NCBI GenBank assembly: GCA_965116155.1
Contig: OZ220488.1
Coordinates: 1,385,458-1,449,457, forward strand
Origin: Bdellovibrionales bacterium
GTDB lineage: Bacteria; Bdellovibrionota; Bdellovibrionia; Bdellovibrionales; UBA1609
DNA length: 64,000 bases
Direction: 5' to 3'
Below the pieces are notes generated by a model, which saw nothing but the letters and a program-made list of their open reading frames with translations, was not told where the DNA came from and searched no databases. This document shows, piece after piece, positions 17,568 to 60,109 of the stretch; within the stretch, counting starts at the first letter, position 1, and each line of letters opens with the position of its first letter. The position numbers and the translations under genes were made by a program.

Positions 17568-18602
17568 GTGTTGCGCTGGGTGCTAGCTTTGGTGTGTGTG
17601 AGCCTGCTTTGTCTTTCGGCTTTAAGGTGCGACGAGGCTCCTGAGGTTAGGTCTGCTATTAGGGCTTCTGTGCAGGTGCCGCGTTATTTGCCGCCTTTAA
17701 AGGTGGTAGTGTCTGCCCACTATAAGGGGCCAATTAATATGCAAAGCATGGCTCTAGCGCACTGGTTTTCACCCAGTTTAAAGGATAGAGAAATTTACAT
17801 TAACACCAAACGCCATGCAGAGCTTTATAGTCCTCGGGTGCTTTTGCACGAGGAGTGCGGCGCTCAGGCGGGCGGCGCGGAGCTAAGGAGCGCTCGCTCT
17901 AGCACGCCGCATGCTTCGGGCTTTAAACTTATGCACTGTTTAAGAGCGCAGGCCGAGGGGCAAAGTTCGGTGCTGCTAGGGGTGTCGTCTAAGCCTATTG
18001 TCGCAGGCGAGGTGTTTGAGCCTGAGCAGTCTCGTTTGGTGCAGTTTGTTGTAACACCGCATGCTGCAAAAATCCGCCTTGGTCCTCTTAATAGGGGGTA
18101 TTTTTTTACGGGCCCCACAAAGGCCTTGGATAATGCTTTTGCTGTTTATACTTTGGGTGATGCGCGGGATCCGGCTTTTAATAGTACTGCCCCGGCTACT
18201 GACAGTGTGTGGCCGTTTTTTGAGGGGCGTGTGGGCTTGGGCACTGTGGGCACGGATACCGTGGGGCGCGGCAGCAGCTGCTGTGCCACAGGTGGTGCGT
18301 ATTGCGATTTGCGTAGGGTAGAGGTGCCGGACCCGCGCCATACATCGGACCAAATTGTAGACGCCTGTGTGTTTGTATCGGGCCACAGCTATGCCGACAC
18401 CAAAGTCTCTGGCTATGAGCAGGTGCTATACCCCAGGGCGGCTGTGCTGCCATTGCCGCACCATATGCTGGTGGGTGTTTTAAAGGGAGCGCGGTTTAAA
18501 GCCGTGGCCCGTGTGGATGCCGAAAACCTAGCCCATGAGCTGAGTGCTGCCATTAAGGTCCAAAGCTTGCCCTCTTTTGATGCGCATCAGGGTGCACAGT
18601 AA
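17568..18602 (+). CDS. Orphan secreted protein (344 aa), apparently translationally coupled to the preceding ORF
   Basis: GTG start directly after the upstream TAA. Signal-like LRWVLALVCVSLLCLSALRC. No recognised family. Confidence 0.55.
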   Translation: MLRWVLALVCVSLLCLSALRCDEAPEVRSAIRASVQVPRYLPPLKVVVSAHYKGPINMQSMALAHWFSPSLKDREIYINTKRHAELYSPRVLLHEECGAQAGGAELRSARSSTPHASGFKLMHCLRAQAEGQSSVLLGVSSKPIVAGEVFEPEQSRLVQFVVTPHAAKIRLGPLNRGYFFTGPTKALDNAFAVYTLGDARDPAFNSTAPATDSVWPFFEGRVGLGTVGTDTVGRGSSCCATGGAYCDLRRVEVPDPRHTSDQIVDACVFVSGHSYADTKVSGYEQVLYPRAAVLPLPHHMLVGVLKGARFKAVARVDAENLAHELSAAIKVQSLPSFDAHQGAQ

Positions 18603-18783
18603 GGCTTTGACGGGAGTCTGGTCGCCTTGTGCTTAGAGATCGCACAATGCTGCTACAGGCTCATAGTAGCCTTATAGGCCGCAAAATTCTCTGTAGGACG
18701 CTTGGCACCCTGATGGCCGCCCCTTTGCAAGGGGCTATCAGGATGCCGCCGCTCTACCTCAGAGAATTTTACTAGCGCTCTAA
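18603..18783. repeat. Mosaic unit: linker module + AAAATTCTCTG hairpin (18683-18770) + boundary box
   Basis: GGCTTTGACGGG...GCTACAGGCTCATAGTAGCCTTATAGGCCGC, then a hairpin near identical to 985-1068, then ACTAGCGCTCTAA (18771-18783). Confidence 0.9.
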
Positions 18784-19153
18784 TGCTTACGCATATAGGC
18801 CGCAAAATTCTCTGTAGGACGCTTGGTCCGTAAGGATTAGAGTGTTAGCCACATACTCTGGGCAAAGCGCAGTCTCCAGTGTAGCCCTTTCAGAAAGGGG
18901 CGTGCACACTGGAGACAAGTGCCCCACAGAGTATGTGGCGGCCTATAAGGCTACCATCGCAGACGCCTCTAGCTGTCTAGTGCACAAAAATGCTTCAGGC
19001 AAGACCACTTGTCCATCTGATGGCCCGCGCCTAGAGGCGCTATCAGCTGGACTGCGTAGGACTGAAGACATTTTTGCTGGCACTTTTATGCTTACGCACG
19101 GAGGCTGCTCTTGCGCCGCCGCTCTGCCTCAGAGAATTTTACTAGCACTCTAA
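18784..19153. repeat. A second hairpin module of the same type (18804-19140), interrupted by nested palindromic insertions and ending in a boundary box
   Basis: The arms AAAATTCTCTGTAGGACGCTTGG (18804-) and GCCGCCGCTCTGCCTCAGAGAATTTT (-19140) are split by inner inverted repeats. These are GCCACATACTCTGGG/CCCACAGAGTATGTGGC and a block also present at 47280-47410. Confidence 0.85.
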
Positions 19154-19174
19154 TATGTTATATATCAAATTTCT

Positions 19175-20575
19175 ATGGCATCTTGTTCTGCGGTATCATC
19201 TGTTGCGCCTTCTGCTAAGGCGTCTGCTTTAGGCACAAAGCCTGGCGACAAAGTTTTGCTTAGAGGTGTTTATATAAGCACTTATGGCTGTCAGATGAAC
19301 GTCAACGACACCGAGCGCATGTTAAGCCTTTTAGAGATGTCCAACTACACGCAGGTAGATAGCCCTGACAAAGCCATGCTTATTGTAATCAACACCTGCT
19401 CGGTGCGCGAAAAGCCCGTACACAAGTTAAGGTCTGAGGTAGGGCGCTATGCGAGGCTAAAAAAACATGACCCCAATATTTTAATTGGCGTAGGGGGCTG
19501 TGTGGCGCAGCAAAAAAAGCAAGAGCTCTTGCAAGAGGTGCCGTTAGTGGATTTTGTATTTGGCACCGATGCTATCGACCAGTTGCCTAGTATTGTGCAA
19601 AATTTAGAGGCAAAAAGGCGCACCCAAGCTAAGGCCAAGTTAGTAGTTGCCCAATTTGAGCACAAAAAGCCCTACCAGGTAGAAACCTTGGTGCGCTGCC
19701 CGGGGGTGTCGAGTTTTGTTAACATTACCAAAGGCTGCGATAACTTTTGCACCTTTTGCATTGTGCCTTTTACAAGAGGCCGCGAGCGCAGTAGGGCTCT
19801 TAAAGAGCTGGTGTGGGATGTAGAGCGCTTATGCCGGCGCGGTGTAAAAGAGATCGTACTGTTGGGGCAAAATGTAAATTCTTATCGCTCGGCTTGTGGG
19901 GCGGGTTTTGCAGAGCTTTTGGTGAGCCTTTGCGAAAAAACGCAGCTTTCACGTTTGCGCTACACCACCAGCCACCCGAAGGACTTTAACGAAGAGCTTA
20001 TAGATGTTTTGGCGCAGTTTAGAGACAAAATTGTAGAGCACGTGCACCTGCCTGTGCAAAGTGGCAATAGCGATGTTTTAAAAGCCATGAACCGCGGCTA
20101 TACGCGCGCCGAGTACATAAAAAAGGCACATAAGATTTTAAAAAAAATCCCCGGCGTGGCCTTGAGTACGGATATTATTGTGGGTTTTCCAGGTGAAACG
20201 GGGGAGCAGTTTGAGGATACTTTGTCTTTGCTGGAGCAAGTGCCTTATGAGAGTTTGTTTGCATTTAAATATTCACCGCGCCCTAAAACCAAGGCGGCGC
20301 GTTTTACGGACCAAGTGCCCGAGCCAGAAAAATCCGCTCGCCTGCAAAGGTTGTTTGCAAAACACCGCGCGCTGGCGCAGCCTTTGCTGGCACGGCATTT
20401 GGGAACCCGGCAAAGGGTGCTAGTAGAGGAGCAGCGCTCCGACGGCACTTGGTACGGTCGTAGTCCGCACAATAGGCCGACTTACTTTAAGGGTGCATGC
20501 AGTGGGGTGGGGAGCTTTGTGGAGGTGCATATAGAAAAAATCCACCACCAAAGCCTTTGGGGCCGCTGTATATGA
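19175..20575 (+). CDS. miaB: tRNA-2-methylthio-N6-dimethylallyladenosine synthase MiaB
   Basis: YISTYGCQMNVNDTERM, a radical-SAM CDNFCTFCIVP motif, and a TRAM-like C-terminus. The true start could be downstream of 19175. Confidence 0.9.
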   Translation: MASCSAVSSVAPSAKASALGTKPGDKVLLRGVYISTYGCQMNVNDTERMLSLLEMSNYTQVDSPDKAMLIVINTCSVREKPVHKLRSEVGRYARLKKHDPNILIGVGGCVAQQKKQELLQEVPLVDFVFGTDAIDQLPSIVQNLEAKRRTQAKAKLVVAQFEHKKPYQVETLVRCPGVSSFVNITKGCDNFCTFCIVPFTRGRERSRALKELVWDVERLCRRGVKEIVLLGQNVNSYRSACGAGFAELLVSLCEKTQLSRLRYTTSHPKDFNEELIDVLAQFRDKIVEHVHLPVQSGNSDVLKAMNRGYTRAEYIKKAHKILKKIPGVALSTDIIVGFPGETGEQFEDTLSLLEQVPYESLFAFKYSPRPKTKAARFTDQVPEPEKSARLQRLFAKHRALAQPLLARHLGTRQRVLVEEQRSDGTWYGRSPHNRPTYFKGACSGVGSFVEVHIEKIHHQSLWGRCI

Positions 20576-22031
20576 AAGAGCCAGCGGTGCCTTTTGCAGA
20601 CGTGTACGCTTTTGATGATTTGCTTATGGTGCCGCAGGACTCAGACGTGTTGCCGCGCGATGCGGACCTAAGTGTCGATCTGGGTAGAGGGGTGCGCTTA
20701 TCGGTGCCGGTTTTTTCGGCGGCTATGGATACCGTAACCTTGGGTCCTATGGCAGCGGGTATGGCTCGTTATGGAGGCTGTGGGGTGGTGCACCGTAATA
20801 TGTCGGCAGAGGCGCAGGTGAGGGAGGTTCAAAAAGTAAAGCTCACGCATTTGGGTGCTATTGTGGATCCGGTTTGTATAGGGGCGTCTGCTGAGGCTAG
20901 TGTGGCTTTAGAGTTATTAAAAAAGCACAGCATCGGAGGGCTGCCTGTTGTAACAAGTGCGGGGGAGCTTGAGGGAGTACTGACGCGTAAGGATTTGCAA
21001 TTTTGTGTGGATAAAAAACAAAAAGTGCGTGAGCTGATGACAAAAGAGAACCTCGTGACAGCGCCTTTTGGTGTCAGCATAAAAGAGGCGCGCGCTTTGC
21101 TGCGCAAGCACCGTGTCGAAAAATTGCCTCTTTTGGATGCAAGCAATCGCATAAAGGGTTTAATTACGCTAAGCGATTTGGAGCAGCTAGAAAAATTCCC
21201 CCGTGCCACTCGTGACCAGCAGGGGCGTTTGTTTGTGGGGGCGGCTGTGGGAGTGGGCAATACCGAGCGCGAGCGGGCGGAGCAGTTGGTAGGGGCGGGT
21301 GTGGATATGCTCAATGTTGACACCGCCCATGGGCATGCTGTGGCGGTTTGTGAGCAATTAAAGCAGTTAAAGCAGGCGTACCCTAAGGTGTTTATCATGG
21401 GGGGCAATGTTGTCACACAAAAAGCCGCGGAGGCTTTGTTTGAGGCGGGGGCGGATGCGGTAAAAGTGGGTGTGGGTCCGGGCAGTATTTGTACAACGCG
21501 CATTATGAGTGGGGTGGGTGTGCCGCAGGCTTCGGCTATTATGTGGTGTTATAAGGCGGGGTTAAAGCATAAAAAGCCCATCGTGGCAGATGGGGGCTTA
21601 AGGTTTCGGGCGATGTGGCTAAGGCTTTAGCTTTGGGGGCCAGTGCTGTGATGATGGGTAATTATTTGGCCGGCACCGATGCGAGTCCGGGGCGTGTTGT
21701 TACAATAAATGGCCGCAACTACAAGCAGTACCGGGGCATGGGTTCGCGCGCTGCCATGAGGCGCGGCCCTGGTGGCAAAGACCGCTACAAGCAATCGCAT
21801 ATTGGTGAGGATGAGGGCGAGAGCAGCAAGTTTGTACCAGAGGGAGTCGAGGGGCATGTGCCTTATAAGGGGCCTTTGGAGGATGCTTTGTATCAGTTAG
21901 AAGGCGGCTTGCGGGCGGCTATGGGTTATGTGGGAGCCAGTAGCATTCAGCAGCTCCGTGCCCGTGCCACCTTTGTCAAACAAAGCACAAGTGCCCTTCA
22001 AGAGTCTAAGGTACATAGTTTAATAGTTTAA
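20572..22031 (+). pseudogene. guaB: IMP dehydrogenase GuaB, split over two frames by a 1-nt frameshift near 21604-21607
   Basis: The ORFs 20497..21630 and 21615..22031 are colinear with IMPDH (CBS pair, VGVGPGSICTTR, ADGGLRF then VAKALALGASAVMMG). Adding one T to the TTT run restores RFSGDVAKALA. The start ATG at 20572 overlaps the miaB stop (ATGA). Confidence 0.9.
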
Positions 22032-22410
22032 AGGACTAATAAAATTCTCTGGGACAAAGCGGCGGCATCCTGATAGCCTCTGCAAGAGGCGGCCATCAGG
22101 TTGCCAAGCGTCCCGCAGAGAATTTTATGGGCTATACGGCATCTATGAGCCTGTAGCGAAGGGCCGTAGGTCCGTAGCGACCGTACTTTCGTCAAAGCCA
22201 CGTGCTGGACAAAGCGGCGGCGCAAGAGCAGCCTCCGTGCGTAAGCATAAAAGTGTTAGTGAGGGTGCCCTGGCCGGAGAGCGCAGCCGAGTGAGCACTT
22301 TCATGTGCGCAAGGCAAGCGGTCCATGCCAGGGCGCCCTCACGTGCTGGATAGCTTCTGCTCTCAGCCCTACGCAGTCCAGCTGATAGCGCCTAAAGGCG
22401 CGGGCGCCGG
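22029..22410. repeat. Mosaic repeat cluster in inverted orientation (hairpin 22041-22126, linker module, further nested palindromes)
   Basis: TTTAAAGGACTAATAAAATTCTCTGGGAC...CGCAGAGAATTTT, then ATGGGCTATACGGC...CTTTCGTCAAAG, then GTGCGTAAGCATAAAAGTG with the inverted repeat GTGAGGGTGCCCTGG/CCAGGGCGCCCTCAC. The guaB stop (22029-22031) is inside the first motif. Confidence 0.85.
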
Positions 22411-25300: not shown

Positions 25301-25359
25301 TGCTCGCCAAGCCTAAACGAAACCCCGCTACCCGCTCAACAGATGACGCAAAGCCCAAA

Positions 25360-25500
25360 TTAGAGCGCTAGACAGCTAAAGCATCTATGGCCCTATAGCG
25401 CAGGGCCCCAAAGAGGCCCAAGGCGACCACACTGCCGTCAAAGCTCCGTGCGATAGACAAAAACCAATTAAAGGACTAATAAAATTCTATGAGGTAGCGC
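25360..25500. repeat. Repeat-family fragment between sdhC and sdhB (boundary box, inverted linker module, truncated hairpin arm)
   Basis: TTAGAGCGCTAG (25360-25371), ...CCCAAGGCGACCACACTGCCGTCAAAGCTCCG..., and AAAGGACTAATAAAATTCTATGAGGTAGCGC ending 2 nt before the sdhB ATG. Confidence 0.8.
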
Positions 25501-25502
25501 AT

Positions 25503-26341: not shown

Positions 26342-27652
<1,311 letters not shown>

Positions 27653-33097: not shown

Positions 33098-33831
33098 TGG
33101 TGGCAGTGGTCGTGCTGGCTGTGGCCTGTGTATGCGTGCGCGCGCAAGGCGCAGCTCTTGCGGCGCTTGATCAAAAATCTGTCTCTGCACGCGCACCTAA
33201 AGCTTCAAGGTGGGAGTCTACTAAAAATTGGTTTTTAAACCAAAAGGCCATAAGGCTTTATGAGAGTGGCAATGTATTAGAAGCGAAGAAGATTTTTTTA
33301 GATATTTTAGTAACGGATCCATATAACTTTAGCGCGCGTCTTAATTTGGCTCTGTGTTTTGAAAAGCTTGACCAGCAAGCGGAGTCTTTAAAAGAGTACC
33401 TGTGGATGATAGCAGCGCTTTCTAGCACTAGCGCTATAGATAAAAAAACCTTATTTGGGGTGTATTTTAATGCGGCCCGCAATTTTGTCGCTATGGGCGA
33501 TCTACATGGGGGGCTAAAGCTTTACCAAAAGGCACTGGGTGTTTTGCCTTTGTCGGTTGAGACTAAAAATAATATAGAGCTCTTGCTAACGAAAAAAGTA
33601 TCCCCCCAGTGTACGAACCCCAATGCGCAAGAGGACTCTGATCAAAAAGAGGGTGAAGGAGTGGAGGGACAGCAGCCACAAGGGCAAGAGCCAAGTGCTG
33701 CAGAAAAACTCAGCCCAGAAGAAATCAAAGCCCTACTAGAAGAGCTGCAGCGTCAAGAGCAGCAAGCGCGCAAAAAAGAGCATAAGCGCCGCCTTAAAGC
33801 TCCATCCACACCGGGAGGCAAAGGATGGTAG
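33097..33831 (+). CDS. batC: TPR-repeat protein BatC
   Basis: Signal/TM helix MVAVVVLAVACVCV, TPR-like NVLEAKKIFLDILVTDPYNFSARLNLALCFEKLDQ, and a charged tail. Start chosen at the TAATG overlap with batB. Confidence 0.75.
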   Translation: MVAVVVLAVACVCVRAQGAALAALDQKSVSARAPKASRWESTKNWFLNQKAIRLYESGNVLEAKKIFLDILVTDPYNFSARLNLALCFEKLDQQAESLKEYLWMIAALSSTSAIDKKTLFGVYFNAARNFVAMGDLHGGLKLYQKALGVLPLSVETKNNIELLLTKKVSPQCTNPNAQEDSDQKEGEGVEGQQPQGQEPSAAEKLSPEEIKALLEELQRQEQQARKKEHKRRLKAPSTPGGKGW

Positions 33832-36038
33832 TGCGTAAGCATAAAAGTGGACCCATTACAGCTTGGGTTGGCAGTGCAGCCACCTGCCCCCTTTTAGGGG
33901 ATGCTAAGCAGGTGGCAAGCAAAAACCCTCAAGGTGTAATGGGGGAACTAGACAGCTCTTTGCGGCCCTGCAAATTGAGTCAAAGCGGCGTACCTGTGAA
34001 TGCTGGTAATGTGGAGCAAGGTAAGTTATCACGCCTGCGGCCGGATGATCTTGAGTTAGATAAGTTGAGCGGACTCGATTTGCCACACTTGCGTAGCAAG
34101 AGTCTGTTTGTGCTACTATTATGGGCCTTTAGCTTTGTGGCGGAGGCCAAGCTTAGTGCGCGTGCCATTTTGCCAGAAACCCTTGTGGGCTTGGGGCAGG
34201 AGTTTGAGCTGTCATTAGAGGTGCGCGCGCCTGAGAAGCAAAATATTACCTGGCCTAATATGGCTGCACTAAAGCCGGACTTCAGTGAGGAGCGTAGGTT
34301 TCACTCGTCGCGTTTTCAGTCCTCGTGGTCTTTTGGTAAAGCGAATAAAGAGTACATTTATGTGCTTAGGCTCATACTAAAGGCACACAAGTTGGGGTGG
34401 CATGACCTGCCGGAGTTTGAAATCAGTGCTGCAGGGGTGAAGCTTAAAACTCAAAAACTGGCTCTCGAGGTGGTTGAGCCTAAAAAGGCTCCCCCTCGTG
34501 TGAGGACTTTGCCCAATTGGCCAGGCGGTGGGTTAGGCTCTGGGCATTTGCTGGATTCGTTTAAAGATTTTTTTAACGATACTGATCCTTTTGATCGTGT
34601 GCAAAATGCCAAAAGTTTTGTGCGTTTAAAGGTAGACAAAACCAAGGCCTATATTGGTGAGCCCATTATGGCGGAGTGGTTTTTTTATACCCAGCATCCT
34701 TCGGTGGATTTAGAGCCAGTTAACCCGCCGGATTTGGGTGGATTTTGGAAAGAAGAAATCATCCGCAGTGACACTTTGCATTTTGAGCAAGAGGTTGTAG
34801 GGGGGGAGATGTATAAAAAAAGTCTCCTGTCTTCGTATGTGGTGTTTCCATTAAGCCATGGTGAGCTAGATATCGGAGCTTATGAGGTGCGGCTAAGGGC
34901 TTTTGGTAACAGTAAGGCTGAGCTAAAAAAAAGCACCCCCCTTAAAATTGAGGCGCTCCCTTTGCCGCCTAAGGCTCCCAAAAGCTTCACTCAAGGCGTG
35001 GGAGAGTTTAACGTAAAGTTGTTGTTTGATAAGGCCACTATGCGGCAGCGCGAGCCTTGGACTTTAAGGCTAAGCATTAGTAGCGTGAGCCCTTATGCTA
35101 ATGCCAGGCGCGTGGCATTGCCTGCAAGTTTAAAGTGGCCAGAGGGTTTAGAGCTATACGATACCAAAGTGCACACAGAGTATAAAGCCAGTGGTAAATC
35201 GCTTAAGATTTTTGAGTTTGTTTTTTTGCCCCAAAACTTAGGCACAGTGGTTATGCCTCCGCTAACTTTGGGGTTTTTTAACCCCCAAACCCAGCAGTAT
35301 TATGAAAAACTCACAACGCAACTTAGTCTTAATGTGCAGCCAGGTTTACAAACACCAAACAGTACAGCAAGTGACGCGGCGACAGATAATGTCCAAGACC
35401 TAGCGCGGGGCTCAGGTGGTTTGGGTAGTGCAACAGCGCCACGCAGCTTAGCCCTACTTAAAAGTCTTGGCCCTGTGGGATGGTACGATGCTTACCCTTT
35501 GTGGGTTTGGAGGCTCTTTGTAATTTTGGCTTTGGTGATAGCTGTGGGGGTATGGAGTTTAAAAAGGCAGTTGCGGTTTTTAAAAGTACAGGGGTTAGAC
35601 AAAAAAGTTCTTTTAAAAATTAAACATCTTAAGCGCTTGCAGCAAAAGCTACAAAAGGTCACAAATGCCAGCGATGGTGCTAATAGTGGCTTTAATGAAG
35701 AGCAGAGGCGTTTGTTAGCAAGGGAAATTTTAGACGTGCTTAATTTTTTAGCTTGGACAGCTGTATCTCAGTTGCAAGCCCAGCAAAATACTTTGCAGCA
35801 TGAGACTCGCGACATAAGTTATGTGGTGTCTTTGTGGCCAGCAGATTTGCGCAGTAGTTTGGGCGGTGTGTTTTTAGAGTTAAGCCATGTGTTTTCCGGC
35901 TATGCCTTTGCTCCTCAAGCAGCACCAGACGCAGGTGCAGTAACAAAAGCGGCCTTCTCTAAGCAGTTAGAGCTTTTGATCCATGCTGCACTTAAGTTAG
36001 AAGAGTGGCACAAGCAGCGCTCTCGGGTTAAGCTGTAG
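33825..36038 (+). CDS. batD: BatD-like (oxygen-tolerance family) membrane protein. The first ~85 codons of the ORF-track model are repeat-derived, so the true start may be TTG at 34080 or 34089.
   Basis: Size and position follow batC. A signal-like SLFVLLLWAFSFVAEA comes after codon 90, and a late TM helix (LWVWRLFVILALVIAVGVW) is typical of BatD. Confidence 0.7.
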   Translation: MVVRKHKSGPITAWVGSAATCPLLGDAKQVASKNPQGVMGELDSSLRPCKLSQSGVPVNAGNVEQGKLSRLRPDDLELDKLSGLDLPHLRSKSLFVLLLWAFSFVAEAKLSARAILPETLVGLGQEFELSLEVRAPEKQNITWPNMAALKPDFSEERRFHSSRFQSSWSFGKANKEYIYVLRLILKAHKLGWHDLPEFEISAAGVKLKTQKLALEVVEPKKAPPRVRTLPNWPGGGLGSGHLLDSFKDFFNDTDPFDRVQNAKSFVRLKVDKTKAYIGEPIMAEWFFYTQHPSVDLEPVNPPDLGGFWKEEIIRSDTLHFEQEVVGGEMYKKSLLSSYVVFPLSHGELDIGAYEVRLRAFGNSKAELKKSTPLKIEALPLPPKAPKSFTQGVGEFNVKLLFDKATMRQREPWTLRLSISSVSPYANARRVALPASLKWPEGLELYDTKVHTEYKASGKSLKIFEFVFLPQNLGTVVMPPLTLGFFNPQTQQYYEKLTTQLSLNVQPGLQTPNSTASDAATDNVQDLARGSGGLGSATAPRSLALLKSLGPVGWYDAYPLWVWRLFVILALVIAVGVWSLKRQLRFLKVQGLDKKVLLKIKHLKRLQQKLQKVTNASDGANSGFNEEQRRLLAREILDVLNFLAWTAVSQLQAQQNTLQHETRDISYVVSLWPADLRSSLGGVFLELSHVFSGYAFAPQAAPDAGAVTKAAFSKQLELLIHAALKLEEWHKQRSRVKL
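33832..33990. repeat. Repeat-family member inserted between batC and the batD body, open in the batD frame
   Basis: GTGCGTAAGCATAAAAGTG...GTGCAGCCACCTGCCCCCTTTTAGGGGATGCTAAGCAGGTGGCAAGC...CTAGACAGCTCTTTGCGGCCCTGCAAATTGAGTCAAAGCGGCG is colinear with 38612-38780. Confidence 0.75.
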
Positions 36039-36865: not shown

Positions 36866-38214
36866 TTGTGTGCGAAGTTGCAAGAGCGTCCGCAGCACCT
36901 TTATGCAAGAAAATGCAAGTCGTCTGTTAGGAGGCATTTTTTTATATCTGCACGGCGGGGTGTTTTAAAGCCTGAAACACTAGACAAGGCATGGGTTGTG
37001 GATTTGGCCGAGGCTTTATTTGCGGCAGAAAACTACGCCGGTGTTTTAAGGTTGTTAGATGGCGCGGAGTTTAAGGGCAGTAAAAACAGCAGCACGGCTT
37101 CAGGGCTTTGGTTTATAAAAGGGCAGTCGCTTTTATATTTAGGGCATTACGAAAAAGCGGAGCAAGCTTTTTTAAAAAGCCAAAACCCGGGATGCGTGGT
37201 TTTTTGCTATGCTAGCAGGTTTTAGACTTAAAAACTATAAGCTAGCAGCAGACTATGCTCAGCGGTATTTAATGACCGATTCTAAGCTGCGCTTGCAGGC
37301 CATGCACTGGTTGTGGCGTGCGCATCAGCAAATGGGGAACAAAGCACGTGCGCGCGCGCGGGCTCAAGACATTTTACAAAAATACCCCCTAAGCTTTTAT
37401 GGTTTAAAGGCGCGTAAGTTTTTAAACGGCACAGTAGAGTGTGCACAAAAAAACACCTGGAGCACTTATAGGGTAGAGCTTGATCCTGAGCAAACACGGG
37501 CTTTAAGGGCGTTTTTGGTTTTGTCGCGCGTGGGTTTGGCGAAAGAGGCGCTCATGCCACTAGAGCTTCTAGGACAATTAGTGTCGGGGTTTAATTTGTT
37601 ATTTTTGTCGCGTGTGTATGCAGAGGTGGATACTTTGCAAAGTATGTCTTTTGGGCGCGGCGGCAATTGAAAATAATCCGCAATTTTTTTCGCGCGAGGT
37701 TTTGGAGGTTATTTTTCCGCGTAAATATATGCCGCACATAGAGCCTGAGAGCAAAAAGTGGGGTCTAGATGCAAACTTAGTGCTGGGACTTATTCGCCAA
37801 GAGAGTGCTTTTAATCCGCGAGCTAGAAGTGCTGCAGGTGCTAGAGGACTGATGCAAGTGTTGCCTAGCACAGCGCGCGAGATGCGTCGGTATTTGCGTG
37901 CTTATCGCAAGTTGCCTTTGCCTAGCGGGCTCTACCGTCCAAGGGCGAACATTGCAATTGGCACCTACTATTTAAAAAGGTGGCTTAAGGTGTTTAACGG
38001 ACATGTGCCTATTACGTTGGCGTCTTATAATGTGGGGCCTGGCAACTTAAGAAAATGGCTCAAAAAGCGTCAAGATACCGATCAGCTTTGGGTGAGAAAG
38101 AGCGCAAATTATTTGGACGATCTTTGGGTGGATGAGCTTCCTTGGGCTGAAACCCGCTACTATGTCCAAGCCGTCTTGCGCAACTTTATGGTCTATAAAT
38201 GTCTAGCAATTTAA
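36866..38214 (+). pseudogene. slt: Soluble lytic murein transglycosylase (Slt70-like), fragmented over three reading frames
   Basis: The C-terminal SLT domain is LVLGLIRQESAFNPRARSAAGARGLMQVLPSTA...YNVGPGN. The upstream ORFs are helical-repeat, like the Slt U-domain. Frame changes occur at the T6 run 37200-37205 and at TTTTGGG 37649-37655. Confidence 0.8.
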
Positions 38215-38816
38215 AGGACTAATAAAATTCTCTGGGACTAAGCGGCGGCGCAAGAGCAGCCTCCCAGTGCCTTTGAAGTGAGTTTGGGCGCTTCGTTCCC
38301 CTGCGGGGCCCTTCGCTATCAGCGCGTTGATAGCTGTCTAGCGCGCAAAAACACTTTGAATGGGAGCCTTGCTTGCCACCTTGGCTGGCGCCCCTTGCAG
38401 GGGCTGCCAATGTGTCTGCGTCTCTGATCAAAGTGTTTTTGCTGGCGCTTTTATCCTTACGGGCCAAGCGTCCCACAGAGAATTTTATGGGCTATACGGC
38501 TTTTACGGTCCTGTAGCCTTGGGTGTTCGATAGACCCAAGGCGACCAGATTGTCGTCAAAGTTCCGTGCGTTGAGCAAATACAATTTAAAGGACTAATAA
38601 AATTCTCTGGGACTAAGTGCGTAAGCATAAAAGCGCCAGCAATGTTACCCTTGAACCTTAGAGTGCAGCCATCTTGGTTGCCCAAAGGGCATTAGCCAAG
38701 ATGGCAAACGTAGGCTTCAAGTTAATATTGCGCGCTAGACAGCTATCTATGGCCTTGTAAATCGAGTTAAAGCGGCGCTCTTGGCGCTTTTATGCTTGCG
38801 CAGCTAGCGCTTTAAA
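38210..38816. repeat. Large mosaic repeat cluster: two TTTAAAGGACTAATAAAATTCTCTGGGAC heads, nested palindromes and an inverted linker module
   Basis: The head motif occurs at 38210-38238 and 38584-38612. The arm CCAAGCGTCCCACAGAGAATTTT is followed by ATGGGCTATACGGC...GTCGTCAAAG. The cluster ends in GCTTTTATGCTTGCGCAGCTAGCGCTTTAA. The slt stop (38212-38214) lies inside the first head. Confidence 0.85.
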
Positions 38817-41342: not shown

Positions 41343-42783
41343 CTATAACTCCGCCGCGTAATTGACAGGCGCTCTGCCCGGTCCTGGGCCTTTGTTAGTT
41401 GCTTGCAGCTCCTCTTGGTTTAAAACAAGTTCTGGCACTTCCTCAGCTCCTGACATAAGATTTTGAAACAAACCATACTCGGGCAACCACTTTAGCTTGG
41501 CGGTTCCCGTAGGGCCGTTGCGATTTTTGGCAATAATCACCTCGGCCAAGCCTTTAAGCTCAGGGTTGTCGCGGTTGTAGTACTCTGGCCTGTAAAGCAT
41601 CATAATAATATCTGCATCTTGCTCAATAGAGCCCGACTCCCTTAGGTCCGAAAGCAAAGGCCGGCGGTCCGATCGGCTCTCTACACCCCGATTCAGCTGA
41701 GCCAAAGCCACAACGGGCACCTGCAGCTCCTTAGCAACAGCCTTGAGGGTTTTAGAAATCTCCGACACTTCACGCTCGCGCGACTCCACGCGCACTTTTT
41801 AAATCCATTATTTGCAGATAATCCACAAAAATAATATCTAGCCCCTGCTTGCTGGCTTTAAGGCGCCGGGTTTTAGATAAAATCTCATACGGGCTGATAC
41901 CAGAGGTCTCGTCTATAAATAAAGCGGTGTCTGAAATTTTAGCTGCCGAACTTATAAGCTTTTCCCAATCGGGATCCATAAGTTTGCCGGTGTTAAGGCA
42001 CGATAAATTCAGGCGCGCATGGGCACCTAGCATGCGTAGCATAAGCTGCTCTTTCACCATCTCTACACTAAAGTAGGCGACGGTTTTTTTTAAGTTCACC
42101 GACATATGCAAAGCCAGGTTAAGGCTGAGGGCGGTTTTTCCCATAGAAGGCCTAGCCGCCAGCACACTAAGCTCGCCCGGCTGAAAACCGTGCGTTAGCT
42201 GGTCTAAGTCTTCAAAGCCAGAGCCTATGCCCGTTATGCTGTCTTGGTTCGTGTACAGGGCTTCAATTTTTTTAAGATTAGACTTAATAACATCACGCGC
42301 CTCTACCACATCGCCACGGTTTTGCGATGATGCCAAACCAAACACACCGGCCTCTACCTCATTTACAAAACTCTCTAAATCATCAAACTCCTGAGCGTAG
42401 GCCTTAGTGCTGTAGGAGTCCATTTTGCCTATCAGGCGCCGCAGTAGGGCTTTGTCTTTTACAATTTGAGCATAGTGGGCGGCATTAGTGGTGCTGGGAG
42501 TCTGATCCATAAGCTCTGCCAGGTACGCCGCGCCGCCTGTGCTTTCGAGCTGGTTTTTTTCCATCAGCCAATTGGTAACGGTTACCAAATCGGCCGCCTG
42601 GTTTTTATAATGCAGACTTCTTATGGCATTAAAAACTTGCTTGTGTGCTGGATGGTAAAAATCCTCTGCCGACACCATGGTGCCGAGCTCATCCCAAAGG
42701 GCTTGCTCCAACATCAAGGCTCCCAAAACAGACTGCTCTGCTATGAGATTTTGAGGCGGAATTTTCTCCTTTAAAGTGCCCAC
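41343..42783 (-). pseudogene. dnaB: Replicative DNA helicase DnaB, split by a 1-nt frameshift in a homopolymer (plus-strand T5 at 41796-41800)
   Basis: PPQNLIAEQSVLGALML, Walker A AARPSMGKTALSLNLA, IIFVDYLQIM then the break, followed by [29 protein letters not shown] and [18 protein letters not shown]. Confidence 0.92.
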
Positions 42784-42858
42784 GGTCCCCCAAAACCCTC
42801 CCTCAACAAGACCATTTGAACAAACTCCTCCCCAGGGAGTCTAGTCGTAGCGCTTTAA

Positions 42859-43212
42859 CCCATGGCATTTTCCTAGCGCTCTGATTTGTTATTTACTCAG
42901 TGTACGGAGCTTTGACGGCAATCTGGTCGCTTCGGGCCTTTGGCCCTTCTTTCTAGCCCGCCTGAGCATTTGAGTCTGTCGTTTGTCCTCCTGGGTTTTT
43001 CATCCTTGCAGGATGTTCCCAAGAGGACTGCACTCATTGCTCAAATGCTCAGACTAGGCTTTTATGCTTACGCACTTCGCTACAGGCTCATAGATGCTTC
43101 ATAGGTCGGAAAATGCCATGTGGGACGCTTATCTTCCTGATGGCCGCCCCTTCACAGGGGCTATCAGGAAGATGCGCTTAATCCCATGGCATTTTCCTAG
43201 CGCTCTGATTTG
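42859..43212. repeat. Mosaic repeat cluster flanked by a perfect 30-bp direct repeat. It contains the linker module, an 87-bp long hairpin (42964-43050) and hairpin AAAATGCCATG...CATGGCATTTT (43110-43195).
   Basis: CCCATGGCATTTTCCTAGCGCTCTGATTTG occurs at 42859-42888 and 43183-43212. The internal ~205-bp block is near identical to 50525-50728. Confidence 0.9.
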
Positions 43213-47106: not shown

Positions 47107-47466
47107 AGCGCTAGTAAAAACTCTTTAAGCAGTAAGTGAAGCCCCCTTGGCCCCCGTAGTGGGTGTCATGTAAGGGGGCGAAACGAAAGCCTTAAAGAGT
47201 TTTTACGACCTATACAGCTTACGCACTTATAGGTCGCAAAATAAAATTGGGTAATGCGCCATCTCCCTAGCAGACGCCTCTTGCTGTCTAGTGCACAAAA
47301 ATGCTTCAGGCAGGATCACTTGTCCCCCTGATGGCCCGCGCCTTTAGGCGCTATCAGGGAGACTGCGTAAGGCTGAAGACATTTTTGTTGGCACTTTTAT
47401 GCTTACGCACAGAGGCTGCTCTGGATCTGGCTTTTATTGCCCAATTTTATTTTTCTAGCACTCTAA
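47103..47466. repeat. Mosaic repeat cluster bridging two convergent genes
   Basis: Boundary variant TTAAAGCGCTAG (47103-47114). Hairpin AAAAACTCTTTAAGC...GCCTTAAAGAGTTTTT (47116-47204). Inverted TATAGGTCG pair. Hairpin AAAATAAAATTGGG...CCCAATTTTATTTT (47238-47454), which carries a nested insert. CTAGCACTCTAA (47455-47466). Confidence 0.9.
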
Positions 47467-55756: not shown

Positions 55757-58700
55757 ATGAGCGTCGGACCTGTAGCGGCTTCTAACTTGCGCTTGCGCAG
55801 CAGTTATTCGCGCATACCTTCTACGGTGGAGGTGCCTAATTTAATCGAGATCCAGCGCAGCTCGTACGACAAATTTTTGCAAAAAGACGTACCTCCCAAT
55901 GAGCGTACAGACAATGGGCTGCAGGCTGTGTTTAAGTCGGTGTTTCCGGTTTTCGACTTCAACAAGGCGTCTAGCTTGGAGTTTGTAAGCTACTCGTTTG
56001 ACGAGCCCAAGTGCGATGTTTCAGAGTGCCTGCAGCGTGGCATGAGCTATGCGGCTTCTATTAAGGGTGTGTTTCGGCTGGTTATTTTGGATGTCGATAA
56101 ACAAACAGAAGCGCGCAGCATTAGGGATGTAAAAGAGCAAGAGGTGTACTTGGGGGAGATTCCCCTTATGACTCAGAGGGGGTCTTTTATAATCAACGGC
56201 ACGGAGCGTGTGGTGGTGAGCCAGTTGCACCGTAGCCCGGGTGTGTTTTTTGACCATGACCGTGGGCGCAACACTTCGACCACGGGCAAGCTGCTTTATT
56301 CGGCACGGGTGATCCCTTATAGGGGGTCTTGGTTGGATTTTGAGTTTGACCAAAAAGACCTGCTCCATGTGCGTATTGATCGCAAGCGTAAGTTTCCCGC
56401 TACGATATTGCTTAAGGCTTTGGGTTACAGTGCACAGGATATTTTAAGCTACTACTACAATGTTGAGACGATTCGTTTTGATGAAAAAGCCAAAGGTTTC
56501 AAAAGGCAGTTGGATTTAGAAAAAATGTCTCGCCAGCAGGTGAGCACGGATATTGTGGATCCGCGTACGGGTGAGGTGATCGTAAAGGCGGGGCAGCGGT
56601 TAACGCGCGCGCGGGTGCGTAAAATTGAAGAAGCCAAAATCGAGTGGGTGCTTCTACCTGAAGAGGGCATTGTAGGCAAGGTGTTAGGCGAGCCTGTGGT
56701 AGACATGAAAACGGGCGAAATTTTAGCCGACACCAACGATGAGCTATCGGTTGAAATTATCACCAAAGCTTTAGAGCTTGGGGTTAAGGAGTTTAAGCTG
56801 ATCTTTTTTGACGGGCTTTCGGTGGGTCCGTATTTGCGCAATACCCTTCTGGTGGACAAGGTGTTTTCACAAGAAGAAGCCTTGCTCGATATTTACCGGC
56901 GCTTGCGCCCTGGGGAGCCTTCTACCAAAGAGGCAGCCGAGCTGCATTTTCATCGGTTATTTTTTGCTCCTGAAACCTACGACCTTAGCACAGTGGGTAG
57001 GCTTAAAATTAACCACCGGTTTGGCATTACTGAGGATGAGTGTCCGTTAAGCCACTGTGTGTTGACAAAAAAGGACATCCTCGAGGTTGTGCGCACTTTG
57101 GTGGGCTTGAGAAATGGCCTTGGCAAAACGGACGACATCGACCATTTGGGTAATCGTAGGGTGCGGTCTGTTGGGGAGCTTTTAGAAAACCAATACCGCA
57201 TTGGTTTGGTGCGCATGGAGCGAGTGATCCGCGAGCGTATGAGCTTGCAAGACTCGGCTACTATGATGCCTCACGACCTGGTGAACATTAAGCCGGTAAA
57301 TTCTGTGGTGAAGGAGTTTTTTGGCAGCTCGCAGTTGTCGCAGTTTATGGACCAGACAAATCCTTTGTCAGAAATCACGCACAAGCGTAGGCTTTCGGCC
57401 TTGGGTCCGGGGGGGTTAACGCGGGATCGTGCGGGCTTTGAGGTGCGCGATGTGCACCCCACGCATTATGGGCGCATTTGTCCTATTGAGACTCCCGAGG
57501 GGCCCAACATTGGTTTGATTTCTAGCTTGGCGACTTTTGCTCGGGTTAATAAATACGGCTTTATTGAAACCCCGTACCGTAAGGTAGAAAACGGCAAGGT
57601 CGAAGACGAGCATAAGTATATGTCAGCCTTGCAAGAGCAGGGGCACTGCATTGCGCAGGTGGACCGCGAGAGCTTTGATGGCGTAAAGGCCGATAACCTG
57701 ACGGTGCGTGTGGATGGTGAGTGTGAGCTTGTGGATAAAGAAAAAGTCTCACTCATGGATGTGTCACCTGCGCAGTTGGTTTCGGTTGCAGCGTCGCTGA
57801 TACCTTTTTTGGAGCATGACGACGCCAACCGTGCGCTTATGGGCTCTAATATGCAGCGCCAGGCGGTGCCTTTGTTGAGGGCTAAAGCTCCTTTGGTGGG
57901 TACGGGTGTAGAAGAGCTGGTGGTGCGGGACTCGGGGACTAATATTTTGTGCCAGCACGATGGTGTGGTGGACGAGGTCGATGCGGAGCGCATTGTGGTG
58001 CGCCGGTTGCGGGGAGACGTAGTGGGAGCGCGGGCGGATATTTACAAGCTCACCAAATACCAGCGCACCAACCAAAATACTTGTTTTAACCAAAGGCCCA
58101 TTGTGCAAAAGGGCGACCGGGTTCAAAAGGGCACGGTTTTGGCGGATGGGCCTTCGAGCGAGTTGGGCGAAGTGGCTTTGGGGCAGAATGTGCTGGTGGC
58201 CTTCGCACCTTGGATGGGCTACAACTTTGAGGATTCGATTCTGATTTCAGATAGGCTCATTCGGGATGATGTGTACACCTCTGTGCATATTGAGGAGTTC
58301 GAGTGCGTGGCCCGTGACACTAAGCTGGGTCGGGAGGAGATCACCCGTGACATTGCCAATGTGGGTGAAGAGGCTTTGGGCTCTTTGGACACTAGTGGGA
58401 TCGTGCGCATTGGTGCAGAGGTAAGGCCTGGAGATATTTTGGTGGGCAAGGTGACTCCCAAGACGGAGACACAGCTGTCGCCAGAGGAGAAGCTGCTGCG
58501 GGCGATTTTTGGTGAAAAAGCCAGCGACGTGCGGGACACCTCTTTAAGGGTGCCGTCGGGAGTTTCGGGCACTGTGATAGACGCGCAGGTTTATTCGCGC
58601 GAAGGCCCGGAGGGCGATGCGCGCTTGCAAGAGATTGTGGCAGAAAAGCGCGAACGCTTAAAAAAAGACTTAGACATTGAGCAACATGTTTTGCGCTCGG

Positions 58701-60109
58701 CTGTTTTAGAGGAGCTGCGTACGCTCATAGTGGGGCAAGAGGTACAAGGGGAGCTGTTGGATGAAGACGGCGATGCGTGCTTGCTTAAAAAGGGGCACCT
58801 GTTAACCGATGCCGACATAGAGCGCATACCTTTCGCGCTGTTGGGGTATATTCCGCTTAAGCCGGAGCTAGAGACCCAGTGTCAGGGTATTGTAGAAAAC
58901 GCGCGGGCGCGTTTAGACAAAATTGCTGCATCTTTTCAAGAGCGTTCAGAGCGCTTATCTAAGGGCGACGATCTGCTGCCTGGGGTTATTAAAATGGTTA
59001 AAATCCATGTTGCCATTAAGCGCAAGTTGCAGGTGGGGGATAAATTTGCAGGGCGTCACGGTAATAAGGGGGTGATTTCTAAGGTGGTGGCGCAGGAGGA
59101 TATGCCGTATTTGGCGGATGGTACGCCTGTGGATATGGTGCTTAACCCCTTGGGTGTGCCATCGCGTATGAACATAGGCCAGGTGTTGGAGATACACCTG
59201 GGCTGGGCGGCGTGGCAGCTGGGCCAGGACATAAAGCCGTACTTAGAAAAATGGCAGTCTCAGGAGGTTAGGGAGGCTTTTAAAAAGGCTTATAACGACC
59301 CACAGGTGAGCCGCAAAATCGACACAGCGGATGATGAGTCGCTGAAAAAAATGCTCGGCTATGTGGATAGGGGGGTGCATTTTTCTACCCCGGTATTTGA
59401 TGGGGCTTTAGAGAAGGATGTTAAACATGCTCTGCATAGGGCGGGCTTGCCTTCTACGGGGCAGACTTTGTTGTTCGATGGGCGTACGGGTGAGGCTTTT
59501 CATACTCCCGTTACGGTGGGCATTATGTACATGTTAAAGCTGCATCATTTGGTGGAAGAAAAAATCCACGCCCGTTCTATAGGCCCGTACTCTTTGGTGT
59601 CGCAGCAGCCTTTGGGTGGTAAGGCTCAGTTTGGTGGTCAGCGTTTGGGCGAGATGGAGGTTTGGGCCATTGAGGCTTATGGGGCGTCTTATGCGCTTCA
59701 GGAGTTTTTGACGGTTAAGTCGGATGATGTTGCGGGCCGTACGCGCATGTACGAGAGCATTGTTAAGGGCGAAAACATACTAGAGCCTGGCTTGCCAGAG
59801 AGTTTTAATGTTTTGGTAAAAGAGCTGCAGGCCTTAGCGCTCAATGTGGAGCTAGTGGAGTCAGGGGAGCTAACCGAAAAAGCGCCTGACACCAAGGTCG
59901 AGGTAGGAGCGGGTAGGGATCTTGCAGCTAGTACTGCATCTGCTACAAGCCCGACCGTTCAAGAGGGTGTGGTGGATTTAGAGGCGGAGTCGATGGCGCA
60001 GGCGGGGGCCGGTATGGGCTTGGAGGATGACGATGCAGAGTCTACCTCAGATACGGATACGGAAAAGGGAGCGGACGTAGATACAGATAAAGACGTTAGT
60101 GAGAGCTAG
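55757..60109 (+). CDS. rpoB: DNA-directed RNA polymerase beta subunit (1450 aa, with an acidic C-terminal extension)
   Basis: Conserved blocks run throughout ([91 protein letters not shown]). Confidence 0.98.

Follow-up and report, generated by a model that had tools for sequence, protein, structure and literature searches.

The repeats described here fill a short intergenic spacer in the genome of a Bdellovibrionales bacterium (assembly GCA_965116155.1). We analysed a stretch of 64,000 nucleotides around it (contig OZ220488.1, positions 1,385,458 to 1,449,457), referred to below as the window, and all counts are for this one 64-kb window of one genome. The spacer is 572 bp long (18603-19174) and lies between an unannotated open reading frame (ORF; 17568-18602, plus strand) and miaB (19175-20575, plus strand), whose product matches TIGR01574 (E = 6.6e-141). 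It is occupied by nested, hairpin-forming repeat units.

Directly after the stop codon of the upstream ORF comes a linker module (GGCTTTGACG...CATAGTAGCCT; 18603-18672, plus strand), which could be aligned with eight other copies in the window. It is followed by an intact type-1 unit, U1 (18673-18793, plus strand), which gave the best match to the covariance model described below (114.5 bits) and folds at -28.7 kcal/mol (z = -4.6). U1 is made up of a left flank (TATAGGCCGC), two inner motifs (GGACGCTTGG and CCGCCGCTCTACC), a right flank S (ACTAGCGCTCTAAT) and a tail K (GCTTACGCA), and its hairpin arms, AAAATTCTCTG (18683-18693) and CAGAGAATTTT (18760-18770), span 88 bp. The original prediction, which a model made from the letters alone, was that a second copy of this module has its arms about 290 bp apart, with other palindromic modules inserted between them. 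Every element that it listed is present, in place or within a few bases. The left half of the split host (left flank, outer arm and inner motif; 18794-18827, plus strand) is identical to U1 at 33 of 33 positions (18794-18826 against 18673-18705; E = 3.7e-08 in a self-search of the window), and the right half (inner motif, outer arm and S; 19115-19154, plus strand) agrees with 18745-18784 at 38 of 40 (E = 1.9e-09 in the same search). Between the halves lie 288 nt, where about 40 would be usual. Since the arms are shared to this extent, U1 and the split host either arose by a recent tandem duplication or have been homogenised.

The first occupant of the interior is a reversed unit, U6 (18828-18947, minus strand; arms CACATACTCTG and CAGAGTATGTG, tail variant CCTTACGG, 100.6 bits). 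It holds the predicted inner palindrome, with GCCACATACTCTG (18848-18860) and CAGAGTATGTGGC (18927-18939) complementary at 13 of 13 positions. Beside U6, segmentation and the junctions place an 11-nt remnant of a linker 3' end (18948-18958, minus strand). Next comes the left arm and loop (GCAGACGCCTCT-AGC; 18959-18973, plus strand) of a small hairpin, H2, at the centre of the host, which aligns to an uninterrupted H2 at 1211-1236 and to 47270-47284. A second unit, U7 (type E5, TGTCTAGTGCAC...TTATGCTTACGCAC; 18974-19099, plus strand; 93.6 bits), sits in the H2 loop, and the H2 right arm (GGAGGCTGCTC) with TTGC (19100-19114, plus strand) completes the interior; the series of H2 right arm, TTGC and GCCGCCGC also occurs at 22205-22250 and 38205-38268, both on the minus strand. 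The pieces of a AAAATAAAATTGGG-type (type-2) interior expected between the arms are found at 18959-18973 and 19100-19110, and the block of about 125 bp is U7, with a length of exactly 126 nt.

The composite of 361 nt (18794-19154) can be divided into 104 nt of host, 126 nt of U7 and 131 nt of U6 with its 11-nt linker remnant. The 104 nt left after removal of both inserts compares with 108-114 nt for an intact unit without tail, and the 288-nt interior substitutes for the canonical inner hairpin instead of adding to it, the host being of a sub-type centred on H2. Such a host of 104 nt would have received a 126-nt unit in the H2 loop and a reversed unit of ~131 nt between its left inner motif and H2; the order of the two insertions cannot be told. 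Folded as a single strand, the composite reaches -84.8 kcal/mol (z = -6.7), and none of 100 shuffled sequences folded as well.

One superfamily of hairpin-forming units

The original prediction described palindromic modules inserted into one another. Nesting by insertion held up, and the modules proved to be related: all are oriented, non-coding members of a single superfamily of small hairpin-forming units, 108-128 nt long, with a shared plan of eight parts. These are a left flank (TATAGGYCGC or TGTCTAGYGC, TGTCTAGYGCRC), an outer arm, a left inner motif resembling GGACGCTTGG, an inner hairpin, a right inner motif resembling CTGCRCTYT, the second outer arm, the right flank S (nCTAGCRCTYTWAT, CTAGCRCTCTAAT) and a frequent but optional tail K (GCTTACGCAC). 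Segmentation into the shared seven or eight parts succeeded for thirteen units, and fifteen could be aligned. Before a unit of the TATAGG type there is always the linker (~70-90 nt), the last bases of a linker or the K tail of the unit ahead of it, and K is itself similar to the first bases of the linker.

The consensus of the fifteen aligned units has twenty-six base pairs in stacked helices, and two-sided changes are seen at twenty-five of them. Of the cells, 90.7% are paired, compared with 64.6% after shuffling and 37-48% when the partners were slid by 1-3 columns, and there are 108 double-change cells where 34 are expected. The helix sequences vary between sub-types yet remain complementary, while the conserved columns are unpaired and asymmetric; this combination of free but complementary helices with fixed unpaired motifs points to recognition of a folded structure. 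One-sided changes of the G-U type are rare in the helices, and the folding energies of the forward and reverse strands lie within about 0-12 kcal/mol of each other, with the difference going either way. Because both strands fold alike and one-sided changes are rare, the palindromy is a property of the DNA and not of one transcript strand, and we rejected strand-specific folding, whether of an RNA or of one active DNA strand.

A covariance model (R1) built from the fifteen-unit alignment recovered nineteen units (E <= 5e-7) in the window, and four of these were absent from the training set. Eighteen full-length units scored 67-114 bits and one truncated unit 37, with at most 26 bits on the opposite strand. 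The units are directional, since high scores are confined to one strand; eleven lie on the plus and eight on the minus strand. Dispersed copies have diverged by 5.6-17%, several are truncated, and only tandem neighbours are 97-100% identical. The ongoing or recent mobility that the original prediction read from the nesting is not established by this pattern, and our searches turned up neither a second strain nor a close relative for comparison. In the inner hairpin CTGATGGCC...GGCTATCAG (18706-18745 and equivalents), the same G-T mismatch (column pair 55/77) occurs in seven of the fifteen units, and its retention may mark a recognition feature rather than drift.

The family is real, well defined and apparently undescribed, and it is REPIN/BIME-like in its behaviour. 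The 24-mer CAGAGAATTTTACTAGCRCTCTAA had no match in a collection with one genome for each of 185,579 species and none in JGI metagenomes, two family patterns had none in viral contigs, and blastn of the miaB-side spacer against plasmids and phages found no match. The 17-mer CTTTTATGCTTACGCAC, present in eight copies in the window, did have outside matches (58 and 40, all single). We attribute these to chance: no other family motif lay within ~8 kb of them, and many fall inside one conserved coding gene. Rfam models matched only tRNAs in the window; at 18550-19250 there were two sub-threshold matches to miRNA hairpins (20-21 bits against cut-offs of 51-54).

We also searched a relative whose MiaB is 65% identical (ENA ERZ25067936, a 2.5-Mb contig; regions L001 and L002), where we found no family motif, no blast match and no covariance-model match. 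This contig has unrelated repeats of its own at L001 19636-20031, 7420-7570 and 9732-9877, namely an imperfect palindrome of ~400 bp, a palindrome whose centre has been entered by a 92-nt repeat, and tandem CACCCAAAAA-type repeats upstream of miaB. Ankyrin-repeat and Fic proteins are encoded nearby, which suggests that this relative is host-associated.

Insertion into existing units

Empty and filled versions of the same site are found in the window. The uninterrupted type-2 unit U13 (1170-1283, plus strand; 71.9 bits, outside the training set) has an empty H2 (GCCTCT-TGC-AGAGGC), in which GCCTCTTGC directly adjoins AGAGGC. In the second composite (47228-47467, plus strand), the type-2 host (47228-47284 and 47411-47467) carries the 126-nt unit U8 (47285-47410) in the H2 loop, between TTGC and AGAGG. 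When the insert is removed, the remaining 114 nt align without gaps to 1170-1283 at 105 of 114 positions (92.1%). As predicted, the block in the miaB spacer recurs here: U7 and U8 agree at 114 of 126 positions (90.5%) without a gap, and both interrupt H2 at the same nucleotide. Their twelve differences include one compensated pair (A-T to C-G). Beyond the H2 arms of 11-15 nt the surroundings of the two units are dissimilar, so their hosts are distinct. Both composites fold into concentric helices, and for 47228-47466 the folding energy is -53.7 kcal/mol (z = -7.65; none of 200 shuffles as good). A check for target duplication at H2 found none, because between the empty and filled sites the junctions share no more than one base.

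Three further cases bear on insertion. A third occupant of H2, U11 (type E6; 22237-22352, minus strand; 66.9 bits), has the right junction of U7 (GCTTACGCAC followed by GGAGGCTGCTCTTGCGCCGCCGCT), shared over 38 nt of which 24 are host, and its left junction agrees with H2 apart from a deletion of 7 nt. Seven linker copies are uninterrupted and two are interrupted by units of ~124 nt, U17 (42952-43075, plus strand) and U16 (50573-50699), which are 94.4% alike and provide a second pair of empty and filled sites. Finally, U14 (TGTCTAG...GCTTACGCAC; 33831-33953, minus strand; 84.8 bits) has the same ends and stands alone in unique DNA between two genes of a bat operon, outside other repeats. Clean insertion of discrete units without target duplication is thus shown by the empty and filled sites.

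We considered whether the mosaics could have arisen without discrete insertion, by recombination, gene conversion or template switching between short motifs. Conserved motifs do recur within units and at their ends, the right inner motif CTGCRCTCT is similar to S, K looks like the start of the linker, there are truncated and scrambled arrangements (e.g. 9052-9127 and 22330-22405), and in 18794-19154 the usual inner hairpin of the host is replaced and not merely interrupted. However, the 126-nt insert has no homology to the loop or arms of H2 and can be excised cleanly on paper, and the linker inserts and the solitary unit in unique DNA are equally clean. Motif recombination may explain some of the truncated arrangements and does not explain the clean inserts; as a general account we think it rather unlikely.

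Cut-and-paste MITEs (miniature inverted-repeat transposable elements) of a DDE transposon, which have terminal inverted repeats and a target-site duplication, would match the size of ~120 nt, the overall palindromy and the flanks TAGGCCGC and GCGCTCTA, which are about 75% complementary. This explanation is disfavoured and very improbable: H2 shows no duplication, the outermost bases of the flanks are the least complementary, and the ends are asymmetric both in sequence (TATAGGYCGC or TGTCTAG at one end, ...CTCTAAT(GCTTACGCAC) at the other) and in model score (67-114 bits on one strand, <= 26 on the other). That the nesting is an assembly artefact of a hairpin-rich region is scarcely credible. 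Apparent 1-nt frameshifts in the IMPDH and DnaB genes, at TTT and AAAAA, do suggest uncorrected long-read errors, but indel errors cannot make 126-nt inserts, and the same architecture and junctions are found at independent loci with diverged sequence.

The repeated use of one point had led to the prediction of a site preference for hairpin loops or for specific motifs. Preference for sites is borne out, in that four sites within family DNA are each occupied two or three times; it is not simply a preference for loops, since only H2 is a loop. The remaining sites are at the base of small hairpins or a few bases 3' of these, or they fall in unpaired motifs. Because a single 64-kb window of one genome was examined, there are few copies per site. 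Three of the four reused sites hold occupants of different types at the same nucleotide, within 1 nt. The H2 loop holds type E5 twice and E6 once, and the site before TCTACC or TTAGTCC in the right inner motif holds types E6 and E5c (at 9052 and 38617). After GGACGCTTGG, the occupants are reversed units of types E7 and E5b: the second example is a parallel composite (38201-38500, minus strand) in which a reversed type-1 host contains U9 (38335-38462, plus strand; model match 38337-38463, 103.1 bits), so that U6 and a unit of an unrelated sub-type share both host position and relative orientation. The fourth site, in the linker, holds two units that are 94% alike. A GC stands just 5' of the left end in seven of nine inserts (six of eight of the TGTCTAG/TCTAG type, plus U6 when counted from its linker remnant); at H2 this GC belongs to the host, and two bases are short for a target signature. 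Insertion with a target preference is well supported by these observations.

Reused sites could also result from survival. If mobile units land anywhere, nesting would reflect their persistence at gene ends or in repeat DNA that is already inert. In this compact genome the spacers of the window add up to about 10 kb, and family DNA (~3.9 kb, 6% of the window) already occupies 40-100% of ten of the twenty-one spacers; units also cluster at gene 3' ends, where their stop-bearing ends limit the damage. Yet selection leaves unexplained why different types use the same nucleotide (within 1 nt) at three classes of site, and why GC recurs 5' of the left end. The clustering surely owes something to survival in safe DNA, though we regard survival as unlikely to account for the nesting.

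Proposed mobility and comparison with known repeats

Our preferred explanation, which we consider probable, is that the superfamily multiplied by preferential insertion into a few positions of its own DNA, building hairpin-within-hairpin composites. Units, with or without the linker of ~70-90 nt, would spread in the genome through insertions that duplicate no target, or 1-3 nt at most. The preferred targets would be a few positions in existing family DNA, the H2 loop among them, and repeated insertions would stack hairpins inside hairpins. The units would be non-autonomous and mobilised in trans; the gene for the enzyme would lie elsewhere in the 1.6-Mb genome, and the enzyme presumably recognises folded single-stranded DNA. 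As a first and tentative guess, this enzyme could be a Y1/HUH transposase of the RAYT or IS200-IS605 kind.

Several observations weigh against this explanation. At the linker site a duplication of 2-3 nt (CTT) may have occurred. The shared junctions could be partly inherited from one ancestral composite and so not be independent; both occupants of the GGACGCTTGG site have the tail variant CCTTACGG, and the two linker units are 94% alike. DNA-level palindromy singles out no active strand. No transposase, integrase or RAYT gene was found with Pfam or NCBIfam among ~45 scanned ORFs of the window, all of which are housekeeping genes or have no assigned family, and for this reason the mobilising enzyme is something that we purely infer. 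The guess of a RAYT or IS200/IS605 enzyme faces two further difficulties. The 11:8 orientation misfits the strong replication-strand bias of IS200/IS605-type transposition (cumulative GC skew rises all through the window), and the arms differ by sub-type and covary, where REP-like elements would have conserved inverted arms.

A second possibility, to which we give a modest chance, is a self-targeting element recognised by structure, in which an enzyme outside the RAYT, IS200/IS605 and DDE systems inserts units into older units and the units double as gene-end cassettes. The folded unit, with its unpaired motifs and helices, would be read as IntI reads attC, and fractal palindromes would result. 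Each gene-end cassette would combine a six-frame stop with a bidirectional terminator.

To our knowledge, the spread of small non-coding palindromic repeats (REP, REPIN, BIME, NIME, ERIC) is largely unsettled. For this question the family offers clean material, with exact empty and filled sites, no duplication, and sites reused by different types.

The closest analogues are REPINs and BIMEs, and the closest documented behaviour is that of REPINs, which form tandem arrays, show compensatory changes, insert within or beside one another and have a link to RAYT transposases (PMC3116915, PMC3333891). Like REPINs, our units are extragenic non-coding hairpin repeats of ~100 nt in high copy number; each unit as a whole forms one long hairpin with compensatory changes. 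They likewise occur in tandem arrays with flanks, cluster through insertion into or beside copies, and have no classical terminal repeats or duplications. Unlike REPINs, in which an inverted pair of REPs is conserved and the middle varies, their helices vary and their unpaired asymmetric motifs are conserved, and the nesting reaches about five concentric helices. A conserved GTAG or CGTC tetranucleotide is found at one end of REPs (PMC3733652). GTAG and GACG are present in the type-1 arms (CTCTGTAGGACGC) and absent from the corresponding position of other sub-types.

Enterobacterial BIMEs and Neisseria NIMEs are likewise mosaics, in which palindromic units and linkers alternate or follow in tandem at gene ends. 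In NIMEs, short conserved motifs (dRS3) bound variable repeat segments in a way comparable to the units described here. There is no sequence relation to BIMEs or NIMEs, however, and what sets the family apart from them is that its units lie inside one another and that its boundary motif has stop codons in all frames.

Insertion sequences such as IS1397, ISKpn1 and the IS110-family elements ISPpu9 and IS621 target REPs or palindromic units (PMC1525189, PMC12288879). They too hit a specific position of a repeated palindrome, the IS110 type without classical duplication, but they are autonomous elements of 1-1.5 kb with an enzyme of their own, whereas here the 126-nt insert is non-coding and belongs to the same family as the unit that it enters. 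PATEs derived from IS200/IS605 share with our units asymmetric ends, the lack of terminal inverted repeats and of duplication, prominent hairpins and perhaps a short fixed sequence 5' of the left end. They differ in having two subterminal hairpins instead of one long hairpin per unit and a strand bias that the units (11:8) do not show, and no tnpA gene was found in the window. Integron attC sites are imperfect palindromes of 57-141 nt in which structure, unpaired bases and end motifs are conserved and the helix sequence is free, and the same pattern of conservation is seen in the units. The attC sites lie in one array next to intI and flank gene cassettes, whereas the units are scattered over twelve loci among housekeeping genes and carry no genes; a search of the window for an integrase gene found none.

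Gene ends and genomic setting

At ten of the twelve loci the units adjoin gene 3' ends; the other two (25341-25500 and 42850-43212) are in divergent promoter regions. The flank S is one half of a 20-bp palindrome, TTAGAGYGCTAGCRCTCTAA, whose full form (TTAGAGTGCTAGCGCTCTAA, two S half-sites) is found at 867-886, just after a tRNA-Ser gene, and has stop codons in all six frames. The half-site CTAGCGCTCTAA occurs nineteen times in the window with at most one mismatch, compared with 0.39 expected (e.g. at 1271, 9020, 40424, 47103 and 50960). Five genes take their stop codon from it and three more from its variants TTTAAAGGACTAAT and TCAAAGAGCTAGC, and in all eight the S end of the unit faces the gene. 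IMPDH is nine residues shorter at its end than the protein of its nearest relative, exactly where the unit starts. Runs of A4-5 and T4-5 bound most outer helices, much as in a bidirectional terminator.

Tolerance of the units at gene ends would follow from the stop-bearing right end together with possible bidirectional termination. We infer such a stop or terminator function, and units would survive mainly at gene 3' ends, where an ORF clipped by an insertion would be stopped at once. The stop-bearing end illustrates how a repeat can take up position in the final codons of genes while doing little harm in a compact 1.6-Mb genome, and about one gene in six here has had its 3' end reshaped by it.

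The same facts could be taken to mean that the units are functional cis-elements (bidirectional terminators, or hairpins of 3' untranslated regions or of chromosome structure) maintained by selection, with nesting incidental. Strong helix covariation, the A4-5 and T4-5 bounds and the ten of twelve loci beside gene 3' ends fit this idea, but the two loci in divergent promoter regions do not, and a scan of 18603-19174 for promoters and simple terminators found none above the shuffled expectation. It also leaves the copy number, the tandem arrays and the precise insertions unexplained, and function would be compatible with mobility anyway. We consider it improbable as a replacement for multiplication by insertion.

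Avoidance of CTAG was rejected as the cause of the S motif: the tetranucleotide is not rare, with 182 occurrences observed and 248 expected.

The palindrome at 867-886 extends to 30 bp (862-891, CCAAGTTAGAGTGCTAGCGCTCTAACTTGG), its left arm overlapping the CCA end of the tRNA-Ser gene (772-864). Elsewhere, a truncated unit arm (AAAATTCTATGAGGTAG, 25470-25502) ends 5 nt ahead of the sdhB start codon, and as the arm has a GAGG at Shine-Dalgarno distance, this repeat fragment may supply the sdhB ribosome-binding site.

The units also generate spurious ORFs in annotation. The predicted ORF 18842-19153 (103 aa) spans three units and has no family match, and we rejected it as a gene. A BatD-like ORF (33825-36038) has a predicted N-terminus that passes through the unit at 33831-33953; its true start is therefore probably further downstream.

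Gene content in the window is ordinary and housekeeping, including clpXP, ffh, sdhAB, dnaB, ftsK, the nusG-rplKAJ-rpoB cluster and four tRNAs. The closest outside relatives of MiaB are only 63-68% identical, the named ones coming from metagenome-assembled genomes of Bdellovibrio, Bdellovibrionales or Bdellovibrionota, and by this measure the host organism is deep-branching and Bdellovibrionota-like, with a small genome. MiaB has ~33 more N-terminal residues than that of its relative, so the annotated start may be set too far upstream.

Two essential genes are each broken into two overlapping ORFs. For guaB (IMPDH) these are 20497-21630 and 21615-22031, with an apparent 1-nt indel at TTT (~21607-21609), and for dnaB 41770-42783 and 41343-41795, with one at AAAAA (~41800). 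Both frameshifts are probably long-read assembly errors rather than signs of pseudogenes, and they leave the repeat architecture unaffected. A perfect (CT)14.5 microsatellite at 26393-26421, inside the 3' part of an unannotated ORF (26342-27652, minus strand), is possibly prone to slippage. RpoB (55757-60109) has 1450 aa, and its Pfam domain 6, with 373 profile positions, is stretched over residues 732-1291, implying that the lineage has a specific insertion of some 190 residues.

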